Source: an uncultured Rikenellaceae bacterium (GTDB taxonomy: Bacteria > Bacteroidota > Bacteroidia > Bacteroidales > Rikenellaceae). Taken from it: a DNA stretch of 64,000 bases. Position 1 is the first letter of the stretch; the number at the start of each line of letters is the position of its first letter. The DNA lies in contig CALVFI010000007.1 in NCBI GenBank assembly GCA_944326815.1, positions 22,205 through 86,204 of the forward strand, written 5' to 3'. Shown one piece after another: positions 8,594 through 23,604 of the stretch. A model generated the notes under the pieces. That model was not told the DNA's origin. It saw only the letters and a program-made list of their open reading frames with translations, and ran no database searches. The position numbers and the translations under genes are program-made.

Positions 8594-8630
8594 AACTACT
8601 CCCCCTCTAAATTAGGGGGGAGTAGTTTTT
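8594..8630 (+). terminator. rho-independent terminator downstream of the GH5-like gene
   Basis: 12-bp stem AACTACTCCCCC / GGGGGAGTAGTT, 10-nt loop, then a T run. Confidence 0.65.
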
Positions 8631-8808: not shown

Positions 8809-11800
8809 ATGAAGAAATTCTACCTTTCCGCACGTCAGGTGTCCGTAACACTGACTCATTTGCGCATGGGGGGGGGTATTGGGTTATTGACAATCCTTCT
8901 ATCCCTTTTATTTTCTTTTAATTGCGCAACACTACAAGCACAAGATCAAACGATGATCCCCATCCAGGGTGTTATCCTGGATGAGACAGGACAACCTTTT
9001 GCTGGGGTAACTGTCGTAGCTCCAAACACAACAGGAGGAACCACAACTGATGCTAAAGGAACATATCGTATTACCGTTCCTAAAGGCACCGACTCTTTAC
9101 GCGTATCTTTTATCGGATACAAAACATTAATGGTCAACATCCGGGATGCCCAACTAATTCACATGGAACCGGAAGTTGCCACCATCGAGGATGTAGTGGT
9201 AACAGGTATTTTTACCCGAAAAGCAGAAAGCTATACCGGATCAGCCACTACGATTAAAGGAGATGAGTTAAGACGCGTAGGTAACAAAAACTTATTCCAA
9301 AGTCTCCGCAGCTTAGATGCATCACTGAACATTCTTACCAACCTCGCAGCTGGTTCCGATCCAAATGTCATGCCAGACATGCAATTACGAGGCACCACAA
9401 CATTTCCTAATAGTAGTACCGAAGCCAACATGTCTCTCAAAGGCAATTATCTGGGAAGTGCCAATATGCCACTATTCATACTGGATGGATTTGAAACGAC
9501 TCAGCAACGCATTTTCAATCTGGACATGAACCGCGTGGCAAGTGTCACTATTTTGAAAGACGCATCAGCAAAGGCTATCTATGGTATGAAAGCCGCCAAT
9601 GGTGTAGTAGTTGTAGAGACAAAACCACTATTAACTAATGAAACACTTTTAACCTATACCGGAAGCATTTCATTGGAAATGCCAGATTTAACCAGTTACA
9701 ATCTTTGTAATGCCCTCGAAAAACTACAGGCAGAAAAATATGAAGGTTTTTATGAATCAGCAACCGGTGTTGCTGATCAAATCTTACAGCAACGTATATA
9801 TAACCAACGGTTAGAATCTGCATTAGCCGGCAATAGCACTTATTGGCTTTCTAAGCCCTTACAGACAGGCATCAGTCACCGACACAGTATTAGTGCCGAG
9901 TTTGGCGAAAGAACCTTGAAATCGACCGTAGATTTCAGCTATAACAAGGTCAACGGAGCGATGAAAGGCTCTGATCATGAAACAATCGCAGGAGACATTG
10001 CATTGGCATATCGCTACAAATCAATTAATTTCCGGAATATTACAAGCATTTCAAACACAAAAGGCAATGACTCTCCTTACGGATCATTTTCAGATTACGT
10101 TAAACTGAATCCTTATTGGACACCCTATGATGAAAACGGTATTCTAAAACCCATATTGCAAGAAGCAGACAGGATTGTATCATCAGAAGCAGTACCGAAC
10201 CCATTATATGATGCCACACTATCTACAAAATTATTAAACACATCATTGTATTATGCCAATAACTTTATTGTAGACGCCTTTTTGGTAAAAGGATTAAAAG
10301 TTATCGGGAAATTGGGTATATCTGGAACTCGCGACGAAGACGAACGTTTTTATCCAGCAAACCATTCTCGTTTCTTTAACATGACGGATGTCGACGATTT
10401 GATGCGTCGCGGTTCATATGCTATGACATACGGCAAAAGTTCTCAAATCGATGGAACTGTGGATTTACAATATGCGGGTGATTTTGGGAAACATTCTATT
10501 CTCGCAGCCGTCGAAGGTTATATTTCAGAACAAAAGATCACAGAAGCAACTTATGAAGCCGAAGGATTTCCGAGCGATCGTATGAATAACATCACCTTTG
10601 CCCGCCAATATGCAGAAGGGACCACACCGTACAGTGTAGACATTTTGCAACGGAATCTTAGGGTAATGGGTAATATATCATACACCTATGACAATCGTTA
10701 CGTTCTTGAGGTAACCGGAGCTCGCAATGCTTCTTCCTCCCTTGGAAGTAATAATAAATGGGGAAGCACATGGAGCGCAGGAGCACAATGGAATGCCCAT
10801 AACGAACAATTTCTTAGAAATATTTCAGGTTTAGACGCTATCCGTTTGGGCGTCACATATGGACGGACCGGTAATCCCAATTTTTCTACTCTTCAAGCCT
10901 ATTCTCTATACCGTTATATTACCAACGGTCAATATAACGGTAACATCGGTGCCACATTAATGAATATGGAGAATCCAAACCTGATGTGGCAAATGACAAC
11001 TGATTTTAATACGAAACTCACCATTGAATATAAAGCTCTTTCCTTTACAGCTGAATATTATCGAAGCGTAACGAAAAATACCATTGAGAGCATCGATATC
11101 GCTCCCTCCACCGGCTTCTCGTCTGTCCAAGAAAATGTCGGCGAGGTTACTAATCGTGGTTTTGAATTCCAAATAGGTGTTTATCCATGGCGCAGTTCGA
11201 AAGGCTTTGTCAACATCAACGTAGGCTTCAAAACCAATAAGAACTGGATCAGCAAGCTTTCTGATGCGATGCAAACTTATAACAACCAACAATTGGAAAT
11301 TGCTGAAAATTTAGGAAACAACGATCCAGTATTACTATATCAAGAAGGGAAACCAATCAATGCCATTTATGCTGTTCCCTCATTAGGCATCGACCCCATG
11401 AATGGTAAAGAAGTTTACATCAATAAAGATGGAGAAAAAACTTATACCTGGTCTAAAGATGATATGGTTTATTGCGGACAAACGACCCCAAAATATAACG
11501 GAACCATCAATTTAAATGCAGAATATAAAGGATTCGGAATTACCGCATCTGCCATTTTCAATGGAGGGTCAGACTATTATAACTACACGTTGGTTGATCG
11601 TGTTGAAGATGCAGACATATATTGGAATGTGGATCGTCGCGTATTAACCGGTCGATGGCTTTATCCTGGACAAATAGCCAAATACTCCGCACTCAAAGAG
11701 ACCTATCAAGAAGAGCCTGGAGGAAAACAATTAACTGTAAAATCCAGGTTATCAAGTCGATTTGTACAAAGGAACAACGAATTGTCGATTACCTCGGTTG

Positions 11801-11970
11801 GAGCTTATTATGAATTTAACTCCAAAGTACTACAAAAGTTGCACCTCAAAAGACTTAGACTACAATTTACACTCGAAGATCTAACCACTCTGTCAACTAT
11901 CCGGATAGAACGGGGTACGAGCTATCCGTTTGCCAGAAATATGTCATTCTCATTATCCGGAACTTTTTAA
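8809..11970 (+). CDS. susC: SusC/RagA-family TonB-linked outer-membrane transporter
   Basis: 1053 aa. It has a carboxypeptidase-regulatory-like N-domain (IQGVILDETGQPFAGVTVV...KGTYRITVPKG...SFIGYK), a plug (VVVTGIFTRKAESYTGSATTIKGDEL) and a C-terminal ...SFSLSGTF. The SusD gene abuts it (TAA-ATG). An alternative start at ATG 8866 gives MGGGIGLLTILLSLLFSFNCATLQA|QD. Confidence 0.9.
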   Translation: MKKFYLSARQVSVTLTHLRMGGGIGLLTILLSLLFSFNCATLQAQDQTMIPIQGVILDETGQPFAGVTVVAPNTTGGTTTDAKGTYRITVPKGTDSLRVSFIGYKTLMVNIRDAQLIHMEPEVATIEDVVVTGIFTRKAESYTGSATTIKGDELRRVGNKNLFQSLRSLDASLNILTNLAAGSDPNVMPDMQLRGTTTFPNSSTEANMSLKGNYLGSANMPLFILDGFETTQQRIFNLDMNRVASVTILKDASAKAIYGMKAANGVVVVETKPLLTNETLLTYTGSISLEMPDLTSYNLCNALEKLQAEKYEGFYESATGVADQILQQRIYNQRLESALAGNSTYWLSKPLQTGISHRHSISAEFGERTLKSTVDFSYNKVNGAMKGSDHETIAGDIALAYRYKSINFRNITSISNTKGNDSPYGSFSDYVKLNPYWTPYDENGILKPILQEADRIVSSEAVPNPLYDATLSTKLLNTSLYYANNFIVDAFLVKGLKVIGKLGISGTRDEDERFYPANHSRFFNMTDVDDLMRRGSYAMTYGKSSQIDGTVDLQYAGDFGKHSILAAVEGYISEQKITEATYEAEGFPSDRMNNITFARQYAEGTTPYSVDILQRNLRVMGNISYTYDNRYVLEVTGARNASSSLGSNNKWGSTWSAGAQWNAHNEQFLRNISGLDAIRLGVTYGRTGNPNFSTLQAYSLYRYITNGQYNGNIGATLMNMENPNLMWQMTTDFNTKLTIEYKALSFTAEYYRSVTKNTIESIDIAPSTGFSSVQENVGEVTNRGFEFQIGVYPWRSSKGFVNINVGFKTNKNWISKLSDAMQTYNNQQLEIAENLGNNDPVLLYQEGKPINAIYAVPSLGIDPMNGKEVYINKDGEKTYTWSKDDMVYCGQTTPKYNGTINLNAEYKGFGITASAIFNGGSDYYNYTLVDRVEDADIYWNVDRRVLTGRWLYPGQIAKYSALKETYQEEPGGKQLTVKSRLSSRFVQRNNELSITSVGAYYEFNSKVLQKLHLKRLRLQFTLEDLTTLSTIRIERGTSYPFARNMSFSLSGTF
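8868..8876 (+). repeat. homopolymeric G9 tract inside the 5' end of susC
   Basis: The sequence reads ATG followed by GGGGGGGGT. The run starts with the G of ATG 8866-8868, so nine consecutive G span 8868-8876. It lies upstream of the signal-peptide hydrophobic core, in an otherwise AT-rich gene. Confidence 0.9.
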
Positions 11971-13536
11971 ATGAAACAATTTATGAAAATCAAGATATTA
12001 TATGTATTCTTGGCAACCTCACTTCTTTTCTCTTCTTGCAAGGATTGGCTTGAAGCAGGTTCCAGTACACAACTCAAAGGAGACAAACTCTTCGAAACAG
12101 AAGAAGGATTTGAAAATGCCTTGACTGGCATTTATCTGAATATGGCTTCAGCAAACATGTACGGCAAAAACATGACATGGTTTTTTGTCGATTTAATGGG
12201 ACAGCCGTATTATAATTTTGGGACGACGGATGTGCGTACTGATATATTCCAAGGTAAATATTATACAACACGCACACAGCCCTATGTCGACAACATATGG
12301 AGTGCCTCGTATAATACGATAGCCAATATCAATAACGTATTGAAATATATCGATAAGAATGGGGATAACCTTATGGGAGATGCAACTCAAAACATGTATA
12401 AAGGAGAGCTCCTCGGGTTACGAGCATACATCCATTTTGATTTAATGCGTTTATTTGGATATGGCAATTTACAAAGCAGGGAAGACTATCAAACAAGAAT
12501 GACCATTCCTTATGTTACGGATTACAGTAAACAACAAACACCTCAACGCACATTTCCAGAAACGATAGGTCTCATCATCAAAGATCTTGAAGACGCATCC
12601 AAATATCTGATTAATGACCCTATCACAAACAATAATGTTGCACCAGAAATTTCCAGTAATACATTTTTCAGTAAGGAAACACGACGGTCACGCATGAATT
12701 ATTATGCGGCACAAGCCACTCTTGCTCGTGTATATATGTGGGAAGGAAGTGACACATGTCTCCAAAAGGCATATGATATAGCAAAAACACTTACACAACT
12801 TGAAGGTACTGCATATAAATGGGTTGAGCAGTCTGCTATTGCCAATAATGTTTTATATCCTGATTTAACATTTTCTACAGAACATCTATTCCGTCTTGAC
12901 GTATTCAATTTTAAAGATATCGTGAATAGTAGCATGGTGGATCTTAATACAAATTCTACCAATGTAGAAACAAATGTTTTCACGGAATATAATATTGAAC
13001 AGATGATTGTCAATACCCTTAAATATGATTATGATCTTGGAGATTATGTAACAGATATTGGTCGCGATGATTATCGTTATTCCCTTCATTACAAAAGGGT
13101 TTCAAAAAGTTCAACTGGTGGTAGTGACACATATTATTACATGCCTTATAAATACCGCCAAATCGAATATAGTCCATATTTAGACATGTTGCCAATGATC
13201 AAAATCAGTGAAATGTACTATATTATGGCAGAATATGAACTTCGCAATGGATCGGAAGATGCGGCACTAGATATTATCAATACAGTCCGCCTGCATCGAG
13301 GTATGACAGAACCAATCACAGAAGATATCATCAATAATGATTGGTGGAGTAGTGTAGAAGATGAACTCACCAAAGAATACATGAAAGAATTCGTTGGCGA
13401 AGGACAATTATTCTACTACATAAAACGTAAAGGATATACCAATCCTCTTTATATTTATAATGAAGAATTCACGGACAGCAAATATCTCTTACCGTATCCT
13501 AGCGACGAAACTATTTTAGGCTGGAGAGTTCAATAA
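11971..13536 (+). CDS. susD: SusD/RagB-family nutrient-binding outer-membrane lipoprotein
   Basis: 521 aa with lipobox LFSSCKDWLEAG, then GDKLFETEEGFENALTGIYLNM, typical of the SusD N-terminus. It sits immediately after SusC. Confidence 0.9.
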   Translation: MKQFMKIKILYVFLATSLLFSSCKDWLEAGSSTQLKGDKLFETEEGFENALTGIYLNMASANMYGKNMTWFFVDLMGQPYYNFGTTDVRTDIFQGKYYTTRTQPYVDNIWSASYNTIANINNVLKYIDKNGDNLMGDATQNMYKGELLGLRAYIHFDLMRLFGYGNLQSREDYQTRMTIPYVTDYSKQQTPQRTFPETIGLIIKDLEDASKYLINDPITNNNVAPEISSNTFFSKETRRSRMNYYAAQATLARVYMWEGSDTCLQKAYDIAKTLTQLEGTAYKWVEQSAIANNVLYPDLTFSTEHLFRLDVFNFKDIVNSSMVDLNTNSTNVETNVFTEYNIEQMIVNTLKYDYDLGDYVTDIGRDDYRYSLHYKRVSKSSTGGSDTYYYMPYKYRQIEYSPYLDMLPMIKISEMYYIMAEYELRNGSEDAALDIINTVRLHRGMTEPITEDIINNDWWSSVEDELTKEYMKEFVGEGQLFYYIKRKGYTNPLYIYNEEFTDSKYLLPYPSDETILGWRVQ

Positions 13537-13553
13537 TTAAAAACAACAATAAA

Positions 13554-14546
13554 ATGCATAATATTCATAAATTAACCATAATTTCAGTCGTTGCTGCTTT
13601 CCTGTTTCTCGGATGCAAGAAAGATGAAATAGATACTTATAATATCAACAATGCAGCGGCACATTTTACGAAGAATTTAGTCAATTATTCGTTTGTCGAT
13701 ACACCCGATGTACCCTATACGGACATAGATGTCCCAGTTACTATTATTGGACCGACGGCAGACTATGAACGTCCATTAACCGTGGAGGTCAACGCAGAAA
13801 CTACTACTGCAACACAGACTCAATATGAAATTTTAAGTGCCAAGGTGAATGCTGGTGCGACAAGCGGGGCTGTCACGGTGCGAATCCACAACGATGCTTC
13901 AGCATTAGATGTGAACGATCTTAATTTAGGGTTAAACATAAAGCCGAATGCTGATTTTGCCACGAATATCGATCCAGAAACAGTTGGTGGGCCTAATCAA
14001 TATCCATTTACAAGTACCCTTCTCGTATGGTCTAACCAGATTAAGATGCCTGATTATTGGTTAAAAAGCACCTTGGCTAAGGTAACGTCACAAACGTACC
14101 TTTATCTGGATAAAGAAGAGGATGCTATCTATGGAGAACAAAATGAAGCAGGTACGCGAGTTCAATTAAACAGCGGAAATGTATATTGGACGTATGGGTT
14201 ATATAGTAAAAATCTGGCGAAGATATTAAAAGAAGTATGGCCCGACACTATCAATGTCAATGGATACTTAGGAAAAGACCCAGAATTTGTAGCCAAATAT
14301 CCTCTGGTCGTCATGGTTAAAGGCCAAAACGGCAGTCTATTGGTGCATCAACTTCAGGAATATGTCTACAACTATAATCAGGCTCATCCCGATGCACCTC
14401 TTCGTCACAGTGAAGACGCGGCATGCATTGGCTCCAATGGAAATATTGCAACGGTTAATGTCAATGTAAATGGCGTTATTAAAAAATACGAACTTAGAAT
14501 CAAAGGCTGTCCTCCAATTCTAATCGACGAAAAAGGAAATTTCTAA
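13554..14546 (+). CDS. lipoprotein, probably DUF4843-family (position-based call)
   Basis: 330 aa with lipobox FLGCKKDEID. The family name rests on my recollection that SusC/SusD/DUF4843/PKD-like lipoprotein/zinc-metalloprotease is a recurrent Bacteroidota gene order. It is not verified by HMM. Confidence 0.5.
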   Translation: MHNIHKLTIISVVAAFLFLGCKKDEIDTYNINNAAAHFTKNLVNYSFVDTPDVPYTDIDVPVTIIGPTADYERPLTVEVNAETTTATQTQYEILSAKVNAGATSGAVTVRIHNDASALDVNDLNLGLNIKPNADFATNIDPETVGGPNQYPFTSTLLVWSNQIKMPDYWLKSTLAKVTSQTYLYLDKEEDAIYGEQNEAGTRVQLNSGNVYWTYGLYSKNLAKILKEVWPDTINVNGYLGKDPEFVAKYPLVVMVKGQNGSLLVHQLQEYVYNYNQAHPDAPLRHSEDAACIGSNGNIATVNVNVNGVIKKYELRIKGCPPILIDEKGNF

Positions 14547-14568
14547 CCCTCTCAGTAAAATTTCAATC

Positions 14569-16197
14569 ATGAAAAAGATATCAATCATTTATTATACGAT
14601 TCTCCTGTTGGGTTTCGTGGGTCTTCACTCATGCTATGAAGACAAAACGACAACGGGGACCATCAGCAATACAATCATCGTAGACACGACAGGTTGGAAT
14701 TTCACCAATGATATGCTCGAGGTATCGAGCGGAAGTATATTACGTTTAACTCCTAAAGTAACTCAAACCGGGACCAGCTCGATGGATAATCTCGATTATC
14801 GTTGGGTTATTACCGCCTCTGACTCCAAGATAGAAGGGGATACATTATTTGTCAGCGATCAATTAGTGTTAGAGAAAAAAGTAAACTGGCTTCCCGGCGA
14901 TGATTTTTACAGTTTATTTTTTACGGTCACCGATCGGAATACTGGTGTCCAATATATCAACAGATACAAAATATTGGTTGTCAGTGGCACTGGAGATGGT
15001 ATTGTTATTGCCGACACACGAGACGGGTCTACCTCTGATTTAACGCTGGTTCGGAATAAATATGTCTCTACCAACTATTCCGGCGAAACAAAATATATAC
15101 GTGACAACTATTCTCTCATCAATGGAGAAAAATTCGATGGAATCATAAAATCTCTCCACTACTCCCCCGGATATAATATGGGGAATGAGGTTTTCCGTTT
15201 ATACTTAGCATCCGATGACAAACTGGAAACTATTCTTTCATCTTCATATGCCCATGAATATTCTTTAGAGGATCTGTTTTTATTTCCGCCTACATTGGAT
15301 AAAAAGGTACAGTATATCGGATCTATAAATATTAATACTGTTCTATCGTATGGAGGTGATATTTATACTTTGAATTTTAATTCCAATGTAGGCAATCTTT
15401 TCACAGAGCCTATCAATTATGTAAAACCAGGAGAAGCTGCTAAGAAATTTGTTGCAGACTGCATCGTTACCGTGCCTTGGCGCAATTATCCTCAAGGGAA
15501 TTACTTTGATGCTACCAAAGGACAACTTTTAGCATTTAGCTTTGGAGGGTCAATCACAGCATATAAACAAGGGACCTCTGCACACACATACGATCCGTCA
15601 GCCTTACAGGGTTATACGCCATTAGGCACATCAATTGGAGAGATTAAAACCATTTCCGGAGACGAAGTAGGTGACATTTATTTCATTCTGAAAGCACCGG
15701 ATGGTTCCATTGCATATTATACAGTACATCAGACGTACGACGAATCAACAAATACTTACGAATATACAAGTGGAGATAAATTGACAACAACAGCTTGTGC
15801 AGAAATCGGAGATGCACGTTTCTTCGAAAGTTGCGAAATCCGTCCTATCGTTTATTACGCTACTAGTACGAAAGTATATAATGGAATCATCAATGAAGGG
15901 CCGGCCACCATTAGTGCCACAACCCCGGCATTTACCGTTCCAAGTGGCGAGGAAATTACTTGCATAAAACTTTTCCGTGAGGCATGGACCCAATACACCC
16001 ATGCTGCCTCTGGAACAGAATTCTCGGAAAGTCGAAATAACCTTATGGTAGCAACCTATAATAGCTCTACCCAAGAAGGAAAAGTTTATCTTTTAAAGAT
16101 TCAAGGCAATACAGGAACATTAGAGACTCCAACCGAGGATCGTATATTTACCGGTTTCGGAAAGATCACCGCTTTGGGTGTTCAAGGTAAACAATAG
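14569..16197 (+). CDS. PKD-like-family lipoprotein (Ig-like N-domain, beta-rich C-domain)
   Basis: 542 aa with lipobox GLHSCYEDKT. An Ig/PKD-like segment reads LRLTPKVTQTG...LDYRWVI...FFTVTDRNTGVQY. The family name is partly from synteny and is not HMM-verified. Confidence 0.5.
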   Translation: MKKISIIYYTILLLGFVGLHSCYEDKTTTGTISNTIIVDTTGWNFTNDMLEVSSGSILRLTPKVTQTGTSSMDNLDYRWVITASDSKIEGDTLFVSDQLVLEKKVNWLPGDDFYSLFFTVTDRNTGVQYINRYKILVVSGTGDGIVIADTRDGSTSDLTLVRNKYVSTNYSGETKYIRDNYSLINGEKFDGIIKSLHYSPGYNMGNEVFRLYLASDDKLETILSSSYAHEYSLEDLFLFPPTLDKKVQYIGSININTVLSYGGDIYTLNFNSNVGNLFTEPINYVKPGEAAKKFVADCIVTVPWRNYPQGNYFDATKGQLLAFSFGGSITAYKQGTSAHTYDPSALQGYTPLGTSIGEIKTISGDEVGDIYFILKAPDGSIAYYTVHQTYDESTNTYEYTSGDKLTTTACAEIGDARFFESCEIRPIVYYATSTKVYNGIINEGPATISATTPAFTVPSGEEITCIKLFREAWTQYTHAASGTEFSESRNNLMVATYNSSTQEGKVYLLKIQGNTGTLETPTEDRIFTGFGKITALGVQGKQ

Positions 16198-16222
16198 TGT
16201 AAGTTCTTAACTTTACTCATCC

Positions 16223-16263
16223 ACAAATCAAGCTAAGCAGAGTTTCTGTTTAGCTTGATTTGT
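16223..16263 (+). terminator. strong hairpin after the PKD-like gene (terminator-like, weak T tract)
   Basis: 14-bp perfect stem ACAAATCAAGCTAA / TTAGCTTGATTTGT with a 13-nt loop. It marks the 3' edge of the low-GC cassette. Confidence 0.4.
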
Positions 16264-16317
16264 TAAACATAACAGACATACAAAAAAAACACCAAACTAA
16301 TTATTAACCAAGTTTAT

Positions 16318-18918
16318 ATGAAAAAAAGGAGCTTTATCCTACTGGTAGCAGGTTTCATGATCTGTACCGCAGGGATGACTACAAACGCAGCTGCGTTTCC
16401 CTTTGGAAAGAAGAAAAAGGCCAAAACAGAGGTCAAAAGCGACTCTACGGCCAAGAAAAAAAGCAAGTATGACGAGCTTTTCAAAGACAAGCATGAAACA
16501 GCCACCGGCATGATCACGCTCCACAAAATGAAAGGCAAGCTCTATTTCGAAATGCCTATTGCTCTATTCGGTCGTGAGATGCTAATCGGCTCAACAATTA
16601 CGGAGATCAGCGACAATGGTCACGCTGTTGTCGGGTCGAAACCAACTGCACCTCTCCATGTGTATTTTACCAAAGACAATGAGAACGTACAACTTCGGCA
16701 GGTAAATACAGATTATATCACCAACGATTCCAATATCGATCGAGCAGTCAAGAGCAGTAATATCGGTGCTATTTTAGCGAATGCCAAAATAGCGGCTTTC
16801 AATAACGATAGTACAGCAGTCGTATTCGAAATGACCGATTTCTTCGTCAGCGACAATAAGGAAATGACCCCGTTCGATCGCAACTCTTTATACGGCAGTT
16901 ATAATTGCACCCAAAACTACAAAAGCGATCTCTCTTACCTGTCGGGCATTAAGGCATTTTCGGATAATGTCTCTATCAAAAGCAGCCTTTCCTATACCTT
17001 TTCTGTGGCAGACTTCATGACAGGACGTACGCTGATCAAAGATCAGCCCTTTACCGTAGAACTAACTCGGTCCATCGTATTGCTGCCTGAAACCCCGGCC
17101 CGGCCTCGTATGGCAGACTATCGTATCGGTATTTTCTTCACAGAAAAGCGGCAGTTGGGGGAAGGATCCAATACGACTGCGCCGATTTTCTATGCAAATC
17201 GTTGGCAACTGATACCTTCCGACTCGGCAGCCTATCGTCGCGGAGAGTTGGTGAAGCCTGTAAAACCCATTGTATTCTATGTGGACAACAATTTCCCGGA
17301 AAAATGGAAACCCTATCTGAAAGAGGGTATCAACCAATGGCAAGAGGTATTCGAGAAAGCTGGTTTCAAGGAAGCAATTATCGCAAAAGATTTTCCGACC
17401 GACGACCCTGAATTCGACCCAGATAATATCAAATACTCCTGCGTACGCTATGCTCCGATCGGCATCGAAAACGCCATGGGTCCGTCATGGGTCGATCCGC
17501 GCAGCGGTGAGATTCTGACCGCTTCGGTATACGTCTATCACGATATCATCAAACTGATCAACAGTTGGCTCTTTACCCAAACCAGTGCAGCGGATAAAGA
17601 TGTACGTACAGCAAAGATTCCTGACGAAATCATAGGAGACGCCCTTCGTTACGTGCTCGCGCATGAAATCGGACACTGCTTAGGATTGATGCACAACATG
17701 AGCGCTTCCACCAACATACCGGTCGATTCGCTCCGCTCGCCCTCTTTCACCCAGAAATATGGGACCACGATGTCCATCATGGACTATGCCCGATTCAACT
17801 ATGTGGCACAACCGGGCGATAAAGAACGCGGTGTAAAACTGACGCCTCCGCGCTTCGGCCCCTACGACGAGTATGCTATCAAATGGAGTTACACCCCGAT
17901 TCTCGATGCTAAATCCACAGAAGAGGAGACTCCTATAACTACCCAATGGATTACAGATGCTATCAAGAACCCTCTTTACCGTTACGGGAAACAACAGCTA
18001 TACGGTGTTTTAGATCCTCGCTGTCAAACAGAGGATCTGAGTGATGACGCAGTAAAGGCAACTGAATACGGTATCAAGAATCTCAAAACCATCATGAGTA
18101 ACTATTGCGACTGGATCAAAGAGGGAGATGATGATTTCGAATTCCGCACGGAGATTCTCTTGCAGATTATCAACCAATACGCCATGTATGTGACACACGT
18201 ATACAACAACGTCGGCGGTCTTTACATCAACGAAGTCAAATATGGAGATGAGCTTCCTGCTTTCGAAAATATGCCCAAAGACAAACAGGTACGGGCACTC
18301 AAGATGCTTTTCTCGATGTATGACGATCTCGACTGGCTGGAAAATAAGGAGCTGATGACCAAACTCTCGCTCATTGGTTCACCCAGAGCAGCCATCGAAA
18401 ACTTCATGGCGACCTATATTATTAACACCCCGTTCCGTGTTTCCAGCACTGCTGATATCACGATGAAAACGTTCTCTTTCCAGGAATGTGCAGACATGGT
18501 ATATGATTTTGTATGGAAACCGACAATCAACGGCGCACGTCCCAGTCGTTCTCAAATGGATCTGCAAACGGCCTACATAGAACTCATGATGAAAGCCGGG
18601 GGCTTTGAGACACCGGGATCAAGCAGCAATGCTATCGCCATCGAAGGGAGTAAACCCATTGCACTCCACAATCCATGGTGCGGCTGCACGGCAGATTTGC
18701 AGGAAGAGAGTCTCGGAGAACTGACCTATAATCCGGTAGGAGGATTTGGTTGGAGGCCCCGTATGATGTTCCAAAAAGGGCAAGCAACCGTTGCAGATGT
18801 ATATGCTTATATGACGAAAGTGAAAAACCTGCTCAACAGCAGAATGAACAGTGCTCCGGCCGACATCAAGGCACATTACCAACTACTTGTCCGGGCCATC
18901 GAATTTGGATTAAAATAA
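16318..18918 (+). CDS. zinc-dependent metalloprotease (met-zincin; DUF5117/DUF4953-type by recollection)
   Basis: 866 aa with a signal peptide. The intact motif VLAHEIGHCLGLMHNM carries HEIGH at residues 449-453 (nt 17662-17676) and the third His at 459. Confidence 0.8.
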   Translation: MKKRSFILLVAGFMICTAGMTTNAAAFPFGKKKKAKTEVKSDSTAKKKSKYDELFKDKHETATGMITLHKMKGKLYFEMPIALFGREMLIGSTITEISDNGHAVVGSKPTAPLHVYFTKDNENVQLRQVNTDYITNDSNIDRAVKSSNIGAILANAKIAAFNNDSTAVVFEMTDFFVSDNKEMTPFDRNSLYGSYNCTQNYKSDLSYLSGIKAFSDNVSIKSSLSYTFSVADFMTGRTLIKDQPFTVELTRSIVLLPETPARPRMADYRIGIFFTEKRQLGEGSNTTAPIFYANRWQLIPSDSAAYRRGELVKPVKPIVFYVDNNFPEKWKPYLKEGINQWQEVFEKAGFKEAIIAKDFPTDDPEFDPDNIKYSCVRYAPIGIENAMGPSWVDPRSGEILTASVYVYHDIIKLINSWLFTQTSAADKDVRTAKIPDEIIGDALRYVLAHEIGHCLGLMHNMSASTNIPVDSLRSPSFTQKYGTTMSIMDYARFNYVAQPGDKERGVKLTPPRFGPYDEYAIKWSYTPILDAKSTEEETPITTQWITDAIKNPLYRYGKQQLYGVLDPRCQTEDLSDDAVKATEYGIKNLKTIMSNYCDWIKEGDDDFEFRTEILLQIINQYAMYVTHVYNNVGGLYINEVKYGDELPAFENMPKDKQVRALKMLFSMYDDLDWLENKELMTKLSLIGSPRAAIENFMATYIINTPFRVSSTADITMKTFSFQECADMVYDFVWKPTINGARPSRSQMDLQTAYIELMMKAGGFETPGSSSNAIAIEGSKPIALHNPWCGCTADLQEESLGELTYNPVGGFGWRPRMMFQKGQATVADVYAYMTKVKNLLNSRMNSAPADIKAHYQLLVRAIEFGLK

Positions 18919-18928
18919 GGCTACCATT

Positions 18929-21604
18929 ATGAATAAACAGATAAAAAAATCCATACTGTTGGGTTCGGTGATATGCTTTCTGTCGCTAAATACCTTGCCG
19001 GCAGAGGCTTTCCCATTCTTCAAAAAGAAAAAGAAGAGCGCTGACACCACTCAAGTAGAAAAGAAAAAAGAGACTGCTTACGATAAGATTTTTAAAGACA
19101 AGAAAAAACATATTCGTAAAGATGGTTTCATTACTGTCCATCAGGTAGAAAGCAAAGTCTATCTGGAGGTACCTTTCGGGATTTTTGGTCGAGATCTTTT
19201 ACTGAGTTCCTATGCCAATAAAACCAGCGACATCGGAGTCGTATATCCGGGCATGTCGACGGCTACATCCAAACGGATACAGATCGACAGAACCGACTCA
19301 CTGGTGCTTTTCCGCTTACCCACCTATAACGTCTATGCGGAAAAAGGAGATAAGAACATCGAGCAAGCGCTCAAAACGTCCCGAATCAGTGCCATTATCA
19401 AATCTTTCCCAATCGCAGCAATGAATAACGACAGTACCGCTGTTCTATTCGATGCGACCTCGTTCTTTTCTGCGAGCAATAAAGACATTCTGAACATAAG
19501 GGGAGCAAGTGCCGGCGGTTACACCGTAACTGGGACCAATCTCATCAGCGGAACAAACCGCATTACGGATATAGACGCATTCAACAATAGCATCAGCATC
19601 TCTCTCGAAGCAGGATTCTCTCTCTCACTAACGAGCCTATTCGGCGAAAGTTCCTACAAACCGGAGATGGCTGCCGGAGTTATTGCCTCCCTCACCCTTC
19701 TTCCCGAGGAAAAAGCTGCTGTTCGTACAGCCGATCCCCGAATCGGGACCCAATATGTCGCTTTCACGAAATTCGATGCAGAAGGGGGAACCAAAGATGG
19801 CTATTTCGCTGCTCGATGGAAATTGGAGCCGAAAGATCCGAATGCAATCAAAAACGGACGATTGAGCGAACCTGTAAAACCGATCACATTCTACGTAGAT
19901 ACGTTGTTCACGGAGAGCTGGTATCAAGCTATTAAGAGCGGTCTGGAGAAATGGAATCCCGCATTCGAAAAAGCCGGATATAAAAACGCCATTCATGTGG
20001 AACGTTATCCGGCCGATTCGACTTTCCATGCAAACGATCCATTGATCAGTTGTGTCCGTTATGGATTGGTTCCCGATAAATACACGATCGGAGGACGTTT
20101 TCTGGCGGATCCCCGCACTGGAGAAATTCTCAGCTTCAATCTTACCGTACCGAGAGATTATGCATTTACTGCTCGTCGAGCTGGAGTATATCTGATCAGT
20201 GATGTCGATCCCCGTTATCAGGAATATTTTCTCTCTGACGATGCGGTTTGCGAGGTCCTGACGGCTGATATCATGCGAAAGGTAGGACTGGGTCTCGGCC
20301 TGACGCCCAATTATGCAGGAGGTATCGCCTATGACATCGACCAACTGCGCGATCCGGAATTTACTCAGAAATATGGCTTCACCGCCTCGGTCACCGATGA
20401 GATCCTCTTCAACTATGCAGCCCTGCCGGGAGACAAGGAACGTGGCGTAGCGCTCATCCTCAACAAGCCGGGCGTATATGATGAATTTGCCATTCAATGG
20501 CTCTATTCACCCATCTACGGAGATGAAAAAGAGACCCTGAACAAATGGCTGATGGAGAAAGCTGGCGATCCCCGTTATTTCTATGGAAAAGAACAACGGC
20601 TTGCCATGATGTACGATCCTCGTGCCATTAATGGATTTTTAGGTAATGGCGACCTGGGTAGTGATATCTTCGCTACGGCAGTCAATGAACTATCGCATCT
20701 GAAATATGTGGTAAAGAACAGCCCGGCCTGGCTCACGGATGATCGCATCCCGGCCGAAGAGTACAAAGAACTTTTCCCGGAATGGGTATTTCTCCGATTC
20801 TTTTACGATGTGGTCTATTCTCCGCTATTCTATGTAGGTGGTATTTATCAGAATGAGTATCGAGAAGGGAGCACCACCCCATCCTATCAGTCTGTTCCGA
20901 AAGCGTTGCAGAAAAAGGCCATGAAGTTTGTCCTCGACCAATGCAAGGACTACTCCTGGATGGATGACAAGGATTTTCTCTTTATTGGAGGTCCCAACAG
21001 TAACGCTTCCATATTTACCGCATTAAATCTGCCGATAAGATACATCTTCTCTCGTATCACGATGATGCCGTTAAGTGTAGATAAGTCCGAAGATCCTTAT
21101 ACACAGGAGGAGGCTCTGGATGACCTGGCAGATTTCGTTTTTGCCGATGTCAAAAAAGGAGGAAAGTTGTCACAGACCAGTCAATATTATGTAGGGCAAT
21201 ATATTTCTAACCTCATTGCCAGGTCAACGGTTCTTTCTGCCAATTATAAGAAAGCAAAAAGTAGTGGGAACGCCATCGCTTCTGACGAGGAACTTTTCCC
21301 GGAGATACGAGAAGCGGAAGAGGCTTTCTTACGGATGCAACAACGGAATGCAAAATTCACAGAGAAACCAATAGCGCTCAATGTAAGTAATTCCAATGAT
21401 GATGCTGTTGAACACACAGAAGCAATAGGACCTGCGACATTGTATTTCTACTTCCCGGCAAGTGCAGAGCCGTTATGCTATAACAAACTGGTAGAAGCCC
21501 GTCAGATTCTACGCAATGGCATGGCCTCCTGCTCGAATGATTTTGAAAGAAGTAAATATCGTTATTATATCGAACAGATCTCGATGGCTATCGACAACAA
21601 ATAG
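18929..21604 (+). CDS. catalytically dead paralogue of the preceding metalloprotease (pseudoprotease)
   Basis: 891 aa, colinear with the upstream protein (FYVD..W....K.G...W...FEKAG.K.AI, CVRY, DPR(S/T)GEIL, FTQKYG, PGDKERGV). The motif position reads RKVGLGLGLTPN (nt 20276-20311): H to R, E to K, H to L and the third H to P. There is no HExxH elsewhere in the protein. Confidence 0.75.
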   Translation: MNKQIKKSILLGSVICFLSLNTLPAEAFPFFKKKKKSADTTQVEKKKETAYDKIFKDKKKHIRKDGFITVHQVESKVYLEVPFGIFGRDLLLSSYANKTSDIGVVYPGMSTATSKRIQIDRTDSLVLFRLPTYNVYAEKGDKNIEQALKTSRISAIIKSFPIAAMNNDSTAVLFDATSFFSASNKDILNIRGASAGGYTVTGTNLISGTNRITDIDAFNNSISISLEAGFSLSLTSLFGESSYKPEMAAGVIASLTLLPEEKAAVRTADPRIGTQYVAFTKFDAEGGTKDGYFAARWKLEPKDPNAIKNGRLSEPVKPITFYVDTLFTESWYQAIKSGLEKWNPAFEKAGYKNAIHVERYPADSTFHANDPLISCVRYGLVPDKYTIGGRFLADPRTGEILSFNLTVPRDYAFTARRAGVYLISDVDPRYQEYFLSDDAVCEVLTADIMRKVGLGLGLTPNYAGGIAYDIDQLRDPEFTQKYGFTASVTDEILFNYAALPGDKERGVALILNKPGVYDEFAIQWLYSPIYGDEKETLNKWLMEKAGDPRYFYGKEQRLAMMYDPRAINGFLGNGDLGSDIFATAVNELSHLKYVVKNSPAWLTDDRIPAEEYKELFPEWVFLRFFYDVVYSPLFYVGGIYQNEYREGSTTPSYQSVPKALQKKAMKFVLDQCKDYSWMDDKDFLFIGGPNSNASIFTALNLPIRYIFSRITMMPLSVDKSEDPYTQEEALDDLADFVFADVKKGGKLSQTSQYYVGQYISNLIARSTVLSANYKKAKSSGNAIASDEELFPEIREAEEAFLRMQQRNAKFTEKPIALNVSNSNDDAVEHTEAIGPATLYFYFPASAEPLCYNKLVEARQILRNGMASCSNDFERSKYRYYIEQISMAIDNK

Positions 21605-21627
21605 TCCTTCGAGACCATACGCTCTAT

Positions 21628-21669
21628 AAAAAGAGGTCCGATTGCCAAATGGCAATCGGACCTCTTTTT
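21628..21669. terminator. bidirectional rho-independent terminator
   Basis: 19-bp perfect stem (AAAAAGAGGTCCGATTGCC / GGCAATCGGACCTCTTTTT) with an AAAT loop and A/T runs on both sides. It lies between convergent genes. Confidence 0.8.
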
Positions 21670-21693
21670 ATATCCCATACAGATTCCTGCGAA

Positions 21694-23604
21694 TCAGAAG
21701 GTAATATCCAATCCCCCGAACACCAGGGCTCGCGGCATCGGGAACCCATAATTGATCGTATAACGCTCAGCCATAAGGTTCTCGCCTTTGACGAATAACT
21801 TAATTCCCTTGTCTGCCGCTCCGATCTGATAGGCAGCCCGAGCCCCCAACAACAGATAATGATCCTCCATCTCCGCAACCTGATCGCCCGACGGCAGACG
21901 GGTATAAAGTTTCGATACAACCTGCATGCTGACATTCAACGTGAATCGTCCGGGCGTATAGGTCGCCCCCAGAAACGCTTTATGACGCGGAGCTGCCAAC
22001 AAGGGCCTGCTCGTAGAAAGATAGCTATAATTGGCATCAACGGAAAGGTTCTTCAGCGTACGATAATGAACATCCAACTCAATCCCCTTGTTTTTGAATT
22101 TACCCGTATTGAGGTTCAACGGACGACCATCCTCCCGTACGGTTTCGATCAAATTGCGACCATCGATGAAAAAAGCGGTCAACTCAGCCGACAAACGTCC
22201 CTCCAAAAAGGTTTGCGCCAAGGTCAGGTCGTAATTGAGCATATTTTCCGGTTGCAGATCGGGATTCTGGGGCGGGAACATATACATCTCCCGGATATTC
22301 GGACTGCGGAACCCTTTGGAAAAAGAGCCGCGCAAAGTAGTACGCTCCGCAGGTCGGAAACTGAACCCCGCCTGAGGTACCCAAACACCGCCGAAACGGC
22401 TGTTGTATTCATAACGCACCCCAGCGCTGAGCGTCAACAAGCGAACGATATCCTGCTGTACGGAGAGGTAGCCTGCGGTCTCATGGATCGAACGGTCCAC
22501 CAGATCGCTGTCCGGCGATCCATCGCGGAAAATATTCCACGCATGACCACCCCAATTCTTATAGTCGATCCCGACCGTAAAGCGATTACCCTTTATGATC
22601 CGATAGGTCTGATACGCCATCGCCCCGAAATGGTGGTCATCTGAACGGAAAAGATCGTTCCGAGGCTCCTCGCCGGGCGAATAGCCGTCGTCTATTTCAT
22701 GATGGCCCCAGTTGTAGAAAAACCGAATCGCCCCATCGCGATTCGCATGGGTATTCTCAAGGGCTATGGCTGCGCTGCCACGTAAAATATCCATCACATT
22801 ATCCAACAGAGGATCATTCACCTCTCCGGGATTTTCATTATAGATCCCGGCAATCGAAATATTCCCGGTAAGTTTATACCGATTAGAGAGTTCGTAACCG
22901 AGATTGGCATAACCGTTAGTAATATGGAAACGCGAATCGGGACGATGTCCGTCGGTCCGATCATGGTTCACCGATACGAAACTGCTGAACCGTCCTTTCC
23001 GATAACCATTGCTGAGCAGATACTTCTGCGTATTGTAGGAGCCGAACAACAGACGGGCACGGGTTTGCACCCCATCCGTATCGGGTTTGCGCGTAATAAC
23101 ATTCACCACCCCGCCCATAGCGTTCGACCCATATATAAACGACCCGGGGCCACGGATCACCTCAACCCGTTCAGCATCGGAAGCCACATACATATCGGGC
23201 AAGGCATGGCCGAAAATACCGGCCCACTGGGGTTGTCCATCCAACAGCATGAGTACCTGGTTTCCGCCCCCCACTCCACGCACATTAACCACTCCAGCAG
23301 CCCCCGTAGAGACTCCGAAGCCTGTAATTCCCTTTTGGGTAACGAACAACCCCGGCACATACTGCGATAGCACGGGCAACAAGGACGATTCGCTACTGTT
23401 CTCGATTTGGCTACGGGTCACCACCGAGAGAGTGAGTGGTAGAATATTGCGATGAATTCGTGTACGGGTAGAATACACCTCGATCTTTTGGATATCGGCA
23501 CTATCGGCAATAGAGGTATTCTTGTCTGCGGTTTTCTTCTCTTCAGCTTGGGCCAATGCGGGCAAGCATGCTACAGCACATAGCAGGGTCAATAGTCTCC
23601 TCAT
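21694..23604 (-). CDS. TonB-dependent receptor (non-SusC type)
   Basis: The ORF track gives 21694..23652. I prefer ATG 23604 (MRRLLTLLCAVACLPALAQA) because a -7 box lies at 23630-23637. Plug motif VIRGPGSFIYGSNAMGGVVNVITRKP; C-terminal GGLDITF. Confidence 0.85.
   Translation of the reverse strand: MRRLLTLLCAVACLPALAQAEEKKTADKNTSIADSADIQKIEVYSTRTRIHRNILPLTLSVVTRSQIENSSESSLLPVLSQYVPGLFVTQKGITGFGVSTGAAGVVNVRGVGGGNQVLMLLDGQPQWAGIFGHALPDMYVASDAERVEVIRGPGSFIYGSNAMGGVVNVITRKPDTDGVQTRARLLFGSYNTQKYLLSNGYRKGRFSSFVSVNHDRTDGHRPDSRFHITNGYANLGYELSNRYKLTGNISIAGIYNENPGEVNDPLLDNVMDILRGSAAIALENTHANRDGAIRFFYNWGHHEIDDGYSPGEEPRNDLFRSDDHHFGAMAYQTYRIIKGNRFTVGIDYKNWGGHAWNIFRDGSPDSDLVDRSIHETAGYLSVQQDIVRLLTLSAGVRYEYNSRFGGVWVPQAGFSFRPAERTTLRGSFSKGFRSPNIREMYMFPPQNPDLQPENMLNYDLTLAQTFLEGRLSAELTAFFIDGRNLIETVREDGRPLNLNTGKFKNKGIELDVHYRTLKNLSVDANYSYLSTSRPLLAAPRHKAFLGATYTPGRFTLNVSMQVVSKLYTRLPSGDQVAEMEDHYLLLGARAAYQIGAADKGIKLFVKGENLMAERYTINYGFPMPRALVFGGLDITF

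Follow-up and report, generated by a model that had tools for sequence, protein, structure and literature searches.

Results

Organization of the locus

We have analysed here a 64,000-nucleotide stretch of DNA from an uncultured Rikenellaceae bacterium (the window), which contains a six-gene locus at positions 8809–21604, with all genes on the forward strand. The susC gene (8809..11970) is given as its longest open reading frame, encoding 1053 residues, with Met20 at 8866 as a possible true start, and the susD gene (11971..13536) begins at the first base past the SusC stop codon. Next are the genes for a DUF4843 lipoprotein (13554..14546) and a PKD_2 lipoprotein (14569..16197), a forward-strand stem-loop (16223..16263) that separates this outer-membrane block from a protease block, and two genes whose products we refer to as MP1 (16318..18918), a predicted active-type met-zincin, and MP2 (18929..21604), a putative pseudoprotease paralogue of MP1. 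The intergenic gaps are, from 5' to 3', 0, 17, 22, 120, and 10 nt, and the coordinates agree with an earlier sequence-only reading of this DNA, which had described six co-oriented open reading frames with gaps of 0–22 nt within the blocks.

The operon is delimited by two intrinsic terminators. The 5' boundary is the forward-strand terminator of an upstream fimbrillin-like gene (8594..8627), which has a 13-bp G+C-rich stem followed by a T run, and the 3' boundary is a bidirectional terminator (21625..21672) with a perfect 23-nt inverted repeat, a 2-nt loop, and flanking A and T runs, which is shared with a convergent TonB-dependent receptor gene. The upstream flank encodes Mfa-like fimbrillins, and the downstream flank the convergent receptor and DsbD. 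Upstream of susC there is no exact match to a Bacteroides-type promoter (TTTG...TAnnTTTG), and a sigma-70 promoter scan gave no score above those of shuffled sequences. The hairpin that had been placed between the two blocks is confirmed as a 19-bp stem, with 19-nt arms that are 95% complementary, a 3-nt loop, and a minimum free energy of -28 kcal/mol (z = -6.8 relative to shuffles). It has no T run on its 3' side, and the five closest loci have hairpins of 15–21 bp at the equivalent place with unrelated sequences; it probably sets the relative expression of the surface block and the protease block. There is a dip in GC content across the six-gene cassette, no direct repeats flank the low-GC segment as mobile-element boundaries, and the cassette of this genome was probably acquired horizontally.

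Family searches find no match to any glycoside hydrolase or other CAZyme family in the six proteins or in the products of the flanking genes, as the sequence-only reading had proposed for the locus itself, and the strict definition of a polysaccharide utilization locus (PUL), with SusCD together with carbohydrate-active enzymes for one glycan, does not describe 8809–21604. There is likewise no regulator gene of the HTCS, SusR, or ECF sigma/anti-sigma types inside or adjoining the locus; the window contains just one ECF sigma gene, an orphan at a distance of 21 kb, and the window's SusC has no match to the STN signalling domain.

The transporter and its accessory lipoproteins

SusC matches TIGR04056 with 492.8 bits (curated cut-off 368.25) and the SusC/RagA signature TIGR04057 with 53.6 bits (cut-off 46.2), and contains a Plug domain (E = 1.2e-10) and a CarbopepD_reg_2 N-terminal extension. 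The full-length match, the signature, and the plug together place it among the SusC/RagA TonB-dependent transporters. SusD matches SusD-like_3 with 53.6 bits (cut-off 27) and SusD_RagB with 33 bits (cut-off 23.1), has a lipobox ('...FSSC KDWLE'), and is encoded directly 3' of susC, all as in the SusD/RagB lid lipoproteins. The two accessory proteins match PF16132 (DUF4843; E = 4e-15) and PF16407 (PKD_2, the 'PKD-like family'; E = 2e-15), with lipoboxes 'FLGC KKDEID' and 'LHSC YEDK' respectively. These assignments, and those of the met-zincins below, are the families that had been named from the sequence, with none assigned to an unrelated family.

Neither accessory lipoprotein has a relative in the PDB by single-sequence or profile search, and neither matches a carbohydrate-binding family. 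Both appear to evolve very fast, with only 20–48% identity among orthologues, and word-indexed searches return only six relatives of the PKD_2 protein. The lipoprotein signals are nonetheless well kept among orthologues: the lipobox cysteine is followed by an acidic residue in 58 of 63 SusD proteins, the DUF4843 proteins have a lipobox in 58 of 60 cases and acidic residues past the cysteine in 55 of 60, and the PKD_2 proteins have a lipobox in 54 of 59. On this combination of lipobox and acidic residues, SusD, DUF4843, and PKD_2 are all predicted to be surface-exposed, in keeping with the surface location first suggested for the latter two. Pairs of DUF4843/PKD_2-like lipoproteins may also precede TlpA-like thiol-disulfide oxidoreductases.

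MP1 and MP2

MP1 matches PF16313 (E = 1e-97) as well as PF17148 and PF17162, and is laid out as DUF5118 and a DUF5117 beta domain, a DUF4953 catalytic 'Met-zincin' domain, and a large C-terminal helical domain. It contains the zinc motif HEIGHCLGLMHN at residues 449–460 (HEIGHCLGLMH at 449–459) and a Met-turn, SIMDY, at 486–490, which together make up the met-zincin signature of HExxHxxGxxH and a downstream Met-turn. Residues H449, E450, H453, H459, M488, and Y490 are shared without exception by all 80 MP1 orthologues, and MP1 is predicted to be a peptidase of the active met-zincin type. Its nearest relatives are in Alistipes and Rikenellaceae, at 67–68% identity.

MP2 has the same three Pfam domains (E = 1e-56 to PF16313) and the same succession of DUF5118, DUF5117, and DUF4953, and is 32% identical to MP1 over about 800 residues. 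At the position aligned with the MP1 zinc motif it has RKVGLGLGLTPN, and all of the zinc ligands and the catalytic glutamate are lost; HxxxH is absent from the entire protein, and HExxHxxGxxH with it. The ligand positions are lost in 75 of 75 dead MP2 orthologues, which form one single clade, although the catalytic domain is even so the best-conserved region of MP2, and the dead orthologues keep G452, L455, G456, N460, S464, R473, F477, G482, S486, D489, and N494. Among 139 full-length best matches in a 50%-identity library, 97 are without HExxH. The pairing of an active with a dead paralogue that the sequence-only reading had recognized is thus upheld, and MP2 appears to be a pseudoenzyme, a fold homologue of MP1 that is under selection.

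Both proteins have signal peptides of the signal-peptidase-I type and lysine-rich mature N-termini, and most of their orthologues have AxA- or AQ-type signal-peptidase-I sites. A lipobox-like cysteine with acidic residues occurs in only one of 79 active and two of 74 dead orthologues, quite unlike a surface lipoprotein. No Pfam or NCBIfam match to a Por_Secre_tail or other T9SS domain was found in any of the six proteins, so that MP1 and MP2 show no C-terminal sorting domain of T9SS cargo, and the C-terminus of MP1 is modelled by AF2 as helices. The orthologue signal types and the domain searches therefore bear out the earlier description of these proteins as having a signal peptide only, and because these are plain signal peptides, MP1 and MP2 are probably periplasmic.

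Two AF2 models of MP1 were made, the first from 14 sequences (pLDDT 69) and the second from 118 (pLDDT 87.3), and neither has a structural neighbour in the PDB at E <= 1e-3. Weak structural matches to an M1 aminopeptidase and to MMP-8 are not evidence of kinship. Full-text literature searches found no solved structure or paper for the two accessory lipoproteins or the proteases, and no assayed member of the MP1/MP2 family, in line with the impression of the sequence-only reading that the system has no published characterization.

Conservation and regulation of the cassette

Species-representative genomes were scanned and yielded 493 relatives of the protease; for comparison, 80 related loci from such genomes were used. 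The active copy is followed directly by the dead copy in all 71 loci with enough downstream DNA, and the gap between them (median 11 nt) is within -10 to +30 nt in 72 of 77, with a 4-nt overlap in ten. The genes for SusC, SusD, DUF4843, and PKD_2 precede the pair in 55 of the 62 loci with enough upstream DNA; 51 of these canonical loci were recognized by phmmer and two by Pfam (L042 and L058), one (L057) was assigned by its similarity to those two, and L073 is the last. They come from genera including Alistipes, Bacteroides, Prevotella, Porphyromonas, and Dysgonomonas, and also from Muribaculaceae and Rikenellaceae. Its recurrence in many genera of the Bacteroidales puts the arrangement far outside what chance would produce, and the gene order that had been described as recurrent in Bacteroidota proves to be so; judged by these comparisons, the operon is ancient and conserved across the order Bacteroidales. 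Most of the additional co-oriented neighbours in related loci are unrelated housekeeping genes.

The conserved enzymes of the cassette are exclusively peptidase homologues, with no glycoside hydrolase, lyase, or esterase, and no glycoside hydrolase is found among the six conserved genes in any of the 55 canonical cassettes. There are variations on this theme. One cassette variant has an added C92 papain-like amidase, 13 loci have a gene for a BACON-domain lipoprotein 3' of MP2 as a seventh gene, and two (L015 and L016) have a GH20 gene directly upstream of susC. In Bacteroides (L078 and L079), the MP pair is also found in a SusCD locus that encodes GH99-like proteins along with a metallophosphoesterase, which raises the possibility that the ligand is not a plain peptide but a glycopeptide, and the pair occurs without any SusCD nearby in L013, L047, L050, and L053, which suggests that it is able to work independently. 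On this distribution, the MP pair is a portable two-gene module.

The regulation of these loci also varies. Of 44 canonical relatives, 26 have a SusC with an STN domain and/or an anti-sigma factor of the FecR type, and 17 also have an ECF sigma gene; the L007 locus of B. xylanisolvens XB1A, for example, contains an ECF sigma/anti-sigma pair. The SusC proteins of relatives with sigma/anti-sigma genes have an STN domain and are about 60–80 residues longer. Control of this kind is typical of host-glycan loci in Bacteroides. In the other 18 of the 44 canonical loci, the window included, there is no STN, FecR, or sigma, and both MPs are kept, which excludes anti-sigma site-1 processing as their general function. 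The absence of a cognate regulator that had been reported from the sequence is thus correct for this copy and for one sub-lineage, both of which are a regulator-less variant, but it does not describe the system as a whole.

Discussion

From the gene content, conservation, motif status, signal types, and operon boundaries described here, we infer that the role of this operon is to bring a peptide-bearing nutrient through the outer membrane for periplasmic digestion by a protease/pseudoprotease pair, a reading to which we give a probability of about one half. The substrate is probably to be sought among peptides, small proteins, or glycopeptides. In this model, the SusC barrel, the SusD lid, and the DUF4843 and PKD_2 lipoproteins would form a four-component surface complex that captures oligopeptides or small proteins, and, in the manner of RagAB and Bt2261-64, the SusD lid would close over the ligand before it is drawn into the periplasm. 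The co-translated met-zincin pair would then act on the ligand within the periplasm, with MP1 as the catalyst and MP2, which keeps the scaffold of the catalytic domain, probably serving as an obligate partner in the form of a binding or gating subunit, and the products would pass to ordinary peptidases and inner-membrane transporters.

This differs in one step from the sequence-only reading, in which a proteinaceous substrate was captured at the surface and its fragments imported. The locus encodes no surface protease, which argues against that step, and import of a ready-made oligopeptide or small protein is likelier than that of a large captured protein. The conserved enzymes, all peptidase homologues, are consistent with a proteinaceous substrate, although a purely proteinaceous one is not established and there are features that point to glycopeptides or glycoproteins. 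We keep such a substrate open because of the ECF-sigma control, the recurrent BACON lipoprotein, and the GH20 and GH99-like neighbours seen in some loci.

Taken further, these same features give rise to the alternative that survives best, which we hold as a tentative possibility, that the locus serves glycoproteins or glycopeptides and recognizes them by their glycan. The lipoproteins (DUF4843, PKD_2, and BACON if present) would bind a host or dietary glycan, SusCD would import the glycopeptide, and the MP pair would merely strip off the peptide, leaving glycosidases encoded elsewhere to finish. The STN, FecR, and ECF sigma genes of the relatives are consistent with this, as are the BACON lipoprotein with its putative carbohydrate-binding domains, the GH20 gene next to susC, and the company of the MP pair in the GH99-like and metallophosphoesterase locus. 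A mucin O-glycoprotein locus of B. thetaiotaomicron is also reported to combine SusCD with a peptidase (PMC11992087). However, glycoside hydrolases are missing from the conserved genes of the canonical cassettes and from the vicinity of the locus in the window, the GH20 and GH99-like associations are confined to a small minority of loci, and the two accessory lipoproteins resemble no carbohydrate-binding family.

We consider it quite improbable that the operon is a toxin or signal system rather than one for food, whether as a gate for bacteriocins or ubiquitin-like toxins of competitors that are then destroyed by the MP pair, or for the sampling of peptide signals. A precedent exists in ButCD, a SusCD beside a zinc metalloprotease that is the entry route of the toxin BfUbb (PMC11467351), and the very fast evolution of PKD_2 and DUF4843 is expected of surface receptors under conflict, although it is common to all Bacteroidales surface lipoproteins. 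There are signs of horizontal acquisition of the cassette here. However, its neighbourhood contains no genes for toxins or immunity proteins, control by a ligand-inducible ECF sigma is what uptake systems typically show, and the retention of a costly six-gene operon throughout an order is more in keeping with nutrition.

FecR-type anti-sigma factors of Proteobacteria need periplasmic site-1 cleavage, and the stand-alone MP pairs and those with unrelated SusCD sets suggest that the function of the pair is separable from the transporter. Even so, a role for the MPs in serving the envelope instead of the cargo, by maturing or turning over the transporter's lipoproteins or cleaving an anti-sigma factor, with the linkage to SusCD being one of regulation or assembly, is the least probable of these readings, since loci without signalling parts keep both MPs, two proteins of ~870 residues with a large helical domain exceed the needs of maturation, and literature searches found no precedent.

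Returning to peptide-bearing nutrient import, a more elaborate version can be envisaged in which MP1 and MP2 form an obligate periplasmic heterodimer docked on the periplasmic face of SusC, perhaps via the conserved aromatic and poly-lysine N-terminal tails of the two proteins, such that import and proteolysis are physically coupled. We regard this version as unlikely, although if true it would constitute an 'import-and-shred' machine that acts on glycopeptides or on small folded proteins, and a new class of non-glycan utilisome with a metzincin architecture for which there is no solved structure.

The gut Bacteroidales have been studied almost entirely as glycan foragers, and to our knowledge the acquisition of peptides or proteins across the outer membrane is known there for few systems, namely RagAB, ButCD, and the uncharacterized Bt2261-64. 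In the cassette described here, a SusCD importer is combined with its own protease/pseudoprotease pair. If the proposed function holds, the cassette would represent a widespread gut route for the acquisition of peptide or glycopeptide nitrogen, and its pair would illustrate, in bacteria, a metzincin pseudoenzyme that is conserved as a partner. The substrate could then be sought with an inducer screen, for which the relatives under ECF-sigma control would be a ready genetic entry point.

Comparison with known systems

RagAB of P. gingivalis is similarly a Bacteroidales SusCD-type peptide importer that has no CAZymes in its locus and holds its ligand under the lid (bioRxiv 10.1101/755678; PMC7782687), and bound oligopeptides are present in the structures of both RagAB and Bt2261-64 (PMC7782687; bioRxiv 10.1101/755678). 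However, RagAB is a two-gene system without DUF4843 or PKD_2 lipoproteins or a dedicated periplasmic protease pair, and its peptides are made by secreted gingipains encoded elsewhere. For the SusC and SusD of the window, no special sequence affinity to RagA and RagB over glycan transporters is apparent, as SusC matches RagA at 9.8e-38 and glycan SusCs at 1.7e-39 and 6e-37, and RagB is not among the matches of the SusD search.

The gene order of the cassette resembles that of Bt2261-Bt2264 (PUL27) of B. thetaiotaomicron, in which the genes for two functionally uncharacterized lipoproteins come after those of SusCD and all four products assemble into a stable complex (bioRxiv 10.1101/2022.08.15.503959). 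The complex was crystallized with a bound oligopeptide (PMC7782687); it has no known substrate, and an in vivo fitness defect is reported for the system. The window likewise has two extra lipoprotein genes directly 3' of susD, at gaps of 17 and 22 nt, and the passages considered on PUL27 mention no active/dead protease pair. Bt2264 matches the window's SusC only weakly (3e-12). DUF4843 and PKD_2 were considered as homologues of Bt2261 and Bt2262, but they have no match in the PDB, which includes 5fq6, 5fq7, and 5fq8, at E <= 1 by single sequence or profile, and because the profiles match no PDB chain the accessory lipoproteins are not detectably homologous to Bt2261 and Bt2262.

ButCD of B. 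fragilis is also a non-glycan SusCD that adjoins a predicted zinc-dependent metalloprotease; it imports the small ubiquitin-like toxin BfUbb, and protein uptake has been put forward as its native role by the authors who described it (PMC11467351). Its gene content (ZnMc-SusC-SusD-VWA-AAA ATPase) is different, however: its single protease is encoded upstream and lacks a dead paralogue, and lipoproteins of the DUF4843 and PKD_2 families are absent. Canonical PULs and utilisomes (Sus, levan, and dextran) have in common with the cassette the SusCD core, the downstream surface lipoproteins, and the operon layout, as well as the ECF-sigma/anti-sigma/STN control of many of its relatives, whereas the sole enzymes of the window's cassette are peptidase homologues that are predicted to be periplasmic and not surface-anchored.

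For the proteases themselves, the nearest solved sequence relative of the MP1 catalytic motif is EcxA, the metzincin A subunit of an E. coli AB5 toxin, a marginal local match (E = 0.022, about 80 residues) in which the zinc-binding helix HEIGHxLGLxHN is common to both, although EcxA has 266 residues and neither a DUF5117 beta domain nor a C-terminal helical domain. A parallel for the pair is provided by the alpha and beta subunits of the mitochondrial processing peptidase (M16), an active/inactive pair in which the inactive subunit is retained as an obligate partner. The fold and clan differ (met-zincin versus inverzincin) and the MP1-MP2 heterodimer is a predicted one, but in both cases the proteins are paralogues of which one has no metal ligands yet is retained, and the tight coupling of the MP1 and MP2 genes is consistent with a heterodimer.

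Results

Six co-oriented open reading frames fill positions 8809-21604 (+) of the window, exactly where the sequence-only reading had placed them, with gaps from gene 1 through gene 6 of 0, 17, 22, 120, and 10 nt, and HMM searches agree with its family assignments for all six. Gene 1 encodes a SusC/RagA transporter (TIGR04056, 492.8 bits versus a cut-off of 368) with a plug domain and a carboxypeptidase-regulatory-like N-terminal extension, and with no STN domain in these searches. Gene 2 encodes a SusD/RagB lid, genes 3 and 4 encode DUF4843 (PF16132) and PKD_2 'PKD-like family' (PF16407) lipoproteins, and genes 5 and 6 (MP1 and MP2) each contain DUF5118, DUF5117, and DUF4953 ('Met-zincin', PF16313; E = 1e-97 and 1e-56 respectively). 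Two terminators bound the operon: an intrinsic one at 8594-8627 and a perfect 23-nt inverted repeat at 21625-21672, which has A and T runs on its flanks and is common to the operon and a convergent gene. An active/dead protease pair and a hairpin preceding it had also been described, and both are evident: a zinc motif is present in MP1 and HxxxH occurs nowhere in MP2, and a 19 bp hairpin (16223-16263; z-score -6.8), with no T run after it, lies in the 120-nt spacer between genes 4 and 5. The observation of the operon is confirmed in full.

The flanks are unrelated to the operon, with Mfa-like fimbrillins upstream and a convergent TonB-dependent receptor and DsbD downstream. The upstream group comprises three co-oriented genes (3505-8493) closed by the terminator at 8594-8627; the first two match the Mfa-like fimbrillin family, the second (758 aa) also matches a GLUG motif, and the third (602 aa) has no family match. 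At 21694-26040 (-), two genes converge with the operon and share its terminator region, one for a non-SusC TonB-dependent receptor (652 aa) and the other for a DsbD-type thiol:disulfide interchange protein (761 aa). The G+C content is 0.395 in the transport block and 0.463 in the MP genes versus 0.515 in the rest of the window, whereas in 43 other genomes cassette G+C tracks that of the host, with means of 0.450 (transport) and 0.464 (MP) versus 0.460 for the flanks. This low G+C here, set against the host-like values elsewhere, suggests that the cassette was gained horizontally and recently in this genome. A check for flanking repeats and mobility genes around the window cassette found neither.

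The MP1 family is very large, with at least 8,000 scored candidates at E <= 1e-10 in an indexed search; at 50% identity it comprises about 2,900 clusters. When GTDB species were scanned with one genome each, 493 MP1 relatives came up, and we mapped the loci of the best 80, all at least 48% identical to MP1; the locus statistics describe this orthologous group rather than every DUF4953 protein. These loci are found in Alistipes, Bacteroides, Prevotella, Porphyromonas, Dysgonomonas, Muribaculaceae, Rikenellaceae, and unnamed Bacteroidales. Within these best 80 of 493, a gene with HExxH is directly followed by a paralogue without it in all 71 loci whose downstream sequence extends at least 2.6 kb, and SusC-SusD-DUF4843-PKD_2 directly precedes the pair in 55 of the 62 that have 7.6 kb or more upstream, bearing out the earlier statement that the gene order recurs in Bacteroidota. 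The cassette is a conserved unit rather than a chance neighborhood. Phmmer identified 51 of the 55 canonical loci and Pfam identified L042 and L058; L057 was counted by inference, its gene clustering with those of L042 and L058, and L073, with an additional C92 amidase, is also included. Eight cassette loci (L019, L022, L024, L027, L043, L049, L056, and L064) are in assemblies titled Firmicutes or Chloroflexi (Anaerovoracaceae, Clostridium sp., Acutalibacteraceae, Clostridia, Butyricicoccaceae, Oscillibacter, and Flexilinea), and these are most likely mis-binned contigs, not true cross-phylum occurrences.

The cassette is also modular. The MP pair lacks a SusCD directly upstream in four loci (L013, L047, L050, and L053), and in L046 a SusC-SusD-DUF4843-PKD_2-BACON set is on the other strand, convergent with the pair. 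At a second Bacteroides locus (L078 and L079) the pair lies behind a different SusC/SusD, a couple of GH99-like proteins (one of which is a fusion with a calcineurin-like metallophosphoesterase), and an 874-aa protein, which suggests a glycoprotein- or phosphoglycan-directed variant. L079:17-14967 is the second locus of Bacteroides xylanisolvens XB1A, and its 874-aa protein has a weak Kelch-like match; L077 shares this MP pair, the GH99-like context being known from L078 and L079 only.

Several accessories recur. One is a sigma/anti-sigma pair; another is a BACON-domain surface lipoprotein of some 650-700 aa, encoded after MP2 in 13 loci among the best 80 of 493 (L015:14984-17014, L020:15083-17110, and 11 further loci; see also L046:15228-17321 (-)). 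It has a strongly acidic export signal, its two BACON domains are N-terminal, and the remainder is beta-rich and poorly conserved, with no catalytic motif found in it. Four Bacteroides loci have an accessory TonB-dependent-receptor-like barrel, two loci have a GH20 upstream of SusC, and the remaining neighbors are unrelated genes. In the second locus of Alistipes timonensis (L073:9210-9857), a Peptidase_C92 gene separates the PKD_2 gene from the MP pair and encodes a permuted papain-like amidase, a second peptide- or amide-bond hydrolase in one cassette variant.

No regulator or CAZyme was found near the window operon. The sole ECF-type sigma factor in the window is an orphan 21 kb from the cassette, in another low-GC patch (42959-47764) and without an adjacent anti-sigma; genes for a hybrid histidine kinase/response regulator and for a sigma-54-dependent response regulator come next, and we see no link between these genes and the cassette. 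The claim that the locus has no regulator gene holds for the window copy, but not for the system. Among the 44 canonical loci whose upstream sequence reaches at least 2 kb (within the best 80 of 493), 26 have STN and/or FecR, 17 of them with a recognizable sigma factor too; in L007 (B. xylanisolvens) and L039 (Dysgonomonas), an ECF sigma and FecR anti-sigma precede the cassette and SusC has an STN domain. The other 18 have no STN, FecR, or sigma; the window copy is among them, as are its nearest relatives in Alistipes/Rikenellaceae and a group of Muribaculaceae type.

The five closest loci have a 15-21 bp hairpin (z-scores of -4.7 to -7.1) in the spacer between PKD_2 and the first MP (L001:9910-10000, L002:9908-10000, L006:9911-10000, L011:7528-7633, and L003:3043-3149). 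Because their sequences are unrelated, the hairpin is conserved in position and structure only; none is found in the Prevotella spacers. Its probable effect is to set how much of the outer-membrane components is made relative to the periplasmic ones.

MP1 has the zinc motif HEIGHCLGLMHN at residues 449-460 and a SIMDY Met-turn. MP2 is 32% identical to it over about 800 residues and has RKVGLGLGLTPN at the aligned position. Residues H449, E450, H453, H459, M488, and Y490 are invariant among 80 active orthologues and every one is replaced in 75 dead orthologues, which retain the scaffold positions G452, L455, G456, N460, S464, R473, F477, G482, S486, D489, and N494. In a neighbor-joining tree a single bipartition sets exactly the 75 dead copies apart from the 80 active ones, pointing to one event of duplication and inactivation, which would be older than the divergence of the carrier families. 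The dead lineage evolves faster (median pairwise identity of 31% versus 49%), its best-conserved region is the former catalytic domain, and 35 columns of that domain have an identical residue in both lineages. The intergenic gap has a median of 11 nt and falls between -10 and +30 nt in 72 of 77 cases, ten of them 4-nt overlaps, and 97 of the 139 full-length best matches listed in an unindexed search with MP2 lack HExxH. By these sequence comparisons the MP2-type paralogue is an ancient, maintained pseudoenzyme, and the residue conservation, single dead clade, tight gene coupling, and many HExxH-less matches together argue for MP2 being an obligate partner of MP1, most simply in a heterodimer.

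A lipobox cysteine followed by acidic residues is the surface-export signature of Bacteroidota lipoproteins. The cysteine is present in 58 of 63 SusD, 58 of 60 DUF4843, and 54 of 59 PKD_2 orthologues, nearly always followed by acidic residues (e.g. CKKDEI, CYEDK). MP1 and MP2 lack this pattern and have signal-peptidase-I-type sites, and HMM searches found no T9SS C-terminal domain in either, in agreement with the earlier description of signal-peptide-only proteases; the simplest reading is that both are periplasmic, as proposed there. The public gene call for MP1 (P0001, 853 aa) begins at Met14, cutting into the signal peptide; the longer frame from 16318, which adds 16318-16356, has a normal n-region/h-region signal and aligns with orthologues. 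Within the N-terminal regions encoded at 16318-16450 (MP1) and 18929-19070 (MP2), the mature chains begin with an aromatic, poly-lysine segment, FPFGKKKK in MP1 and FPFFKKKKK in MP2. The majority of orthologues share it, a KKK run being present in 55 of the 79 active and 52 of the 74 dead ones. The segment is disordered in the AF2 model and might be a membrane or transporter tether.

That model of MP1, a confident one (pLDDT 87.3, pTM 0.86), has three domains: an all-beta one at the N-terminus (~46-300), the alpha/beta catalytic one (~300-530), and a helical one over the C-terminal ~330 residues. It has no PDB neighbor at E <= 1e-3. Sequence and profile searches found no solved relative of the DUF4843 or PKD_2 lipoproteins or the MPs, a marginal zinc-helix match to EcxA being the sole match to a solved structure.

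Discussion

We favor, with a probability of about 0.5, a model in which the four-component surface complex would take up ready-made oligopeptides, small proteins, or glycopeptides, and the MP1/MP2 pair would then digest the imported ligand in the periplasm, because the cassette's conserved enzymes are all peptidase homologues, predicted to be periplasmic, and no surface protease is encoded. The main rival, that what the system recognizes in its ligand is a peptide-borne glycan, draws on the ECF-sigma control, BACON lipoprotein, and GH20/GH99-like neighbors, each seen in some loci, and is the less probable of the two. Toxin or signal handling, and a role in envelope maintenance, are less likely still, and anti-sigma processing as a general function is excluded by the 18 of 44 canonical loci without a regulator.

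The functional idea of the sequence-only reading is a reasonable hypothesis once corrected for the regulator, modularity, and possible glycopeptide ligands. We infer that the cassette is a non-glycan or glycopeptide SusCD system distinguished by a metzincin and a pseudo-metzincin that always occur as a pair and whose architecture has no solved counterpart; it is widespread and readily testable. The earlier statement that no experimental characterization was known is matched by full-text searches using family names and descriptive vocabulary, which returned no paper on the operon, although locus tags in supplementary tables could be missed.

The general concept of peptide-importing SusCD systems is already established. 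RagAB is an oligopeptide importer (bioRxiv 10.1101/755678). Bt2261-64 (PUL27 of Bacteroides thetaiotaomicron), a SusCD pair with two extra lipoproteins, is described as forming a stable complex that binds an oligopeptide; it shows a fitness defect in vivo, and its substrate is not known (PMC7782687, PMC8121099, bioRxiv 10.1101/2022.08.15.503959). ButCD, a SusCD adjoining one zinc metalloprotease, is an import route for the small protein BfUbb, and the authors who described it suggest that its native role is protein uptake (PMC11467351). As described in these papers, none of the three has the gene content of the window cassette.
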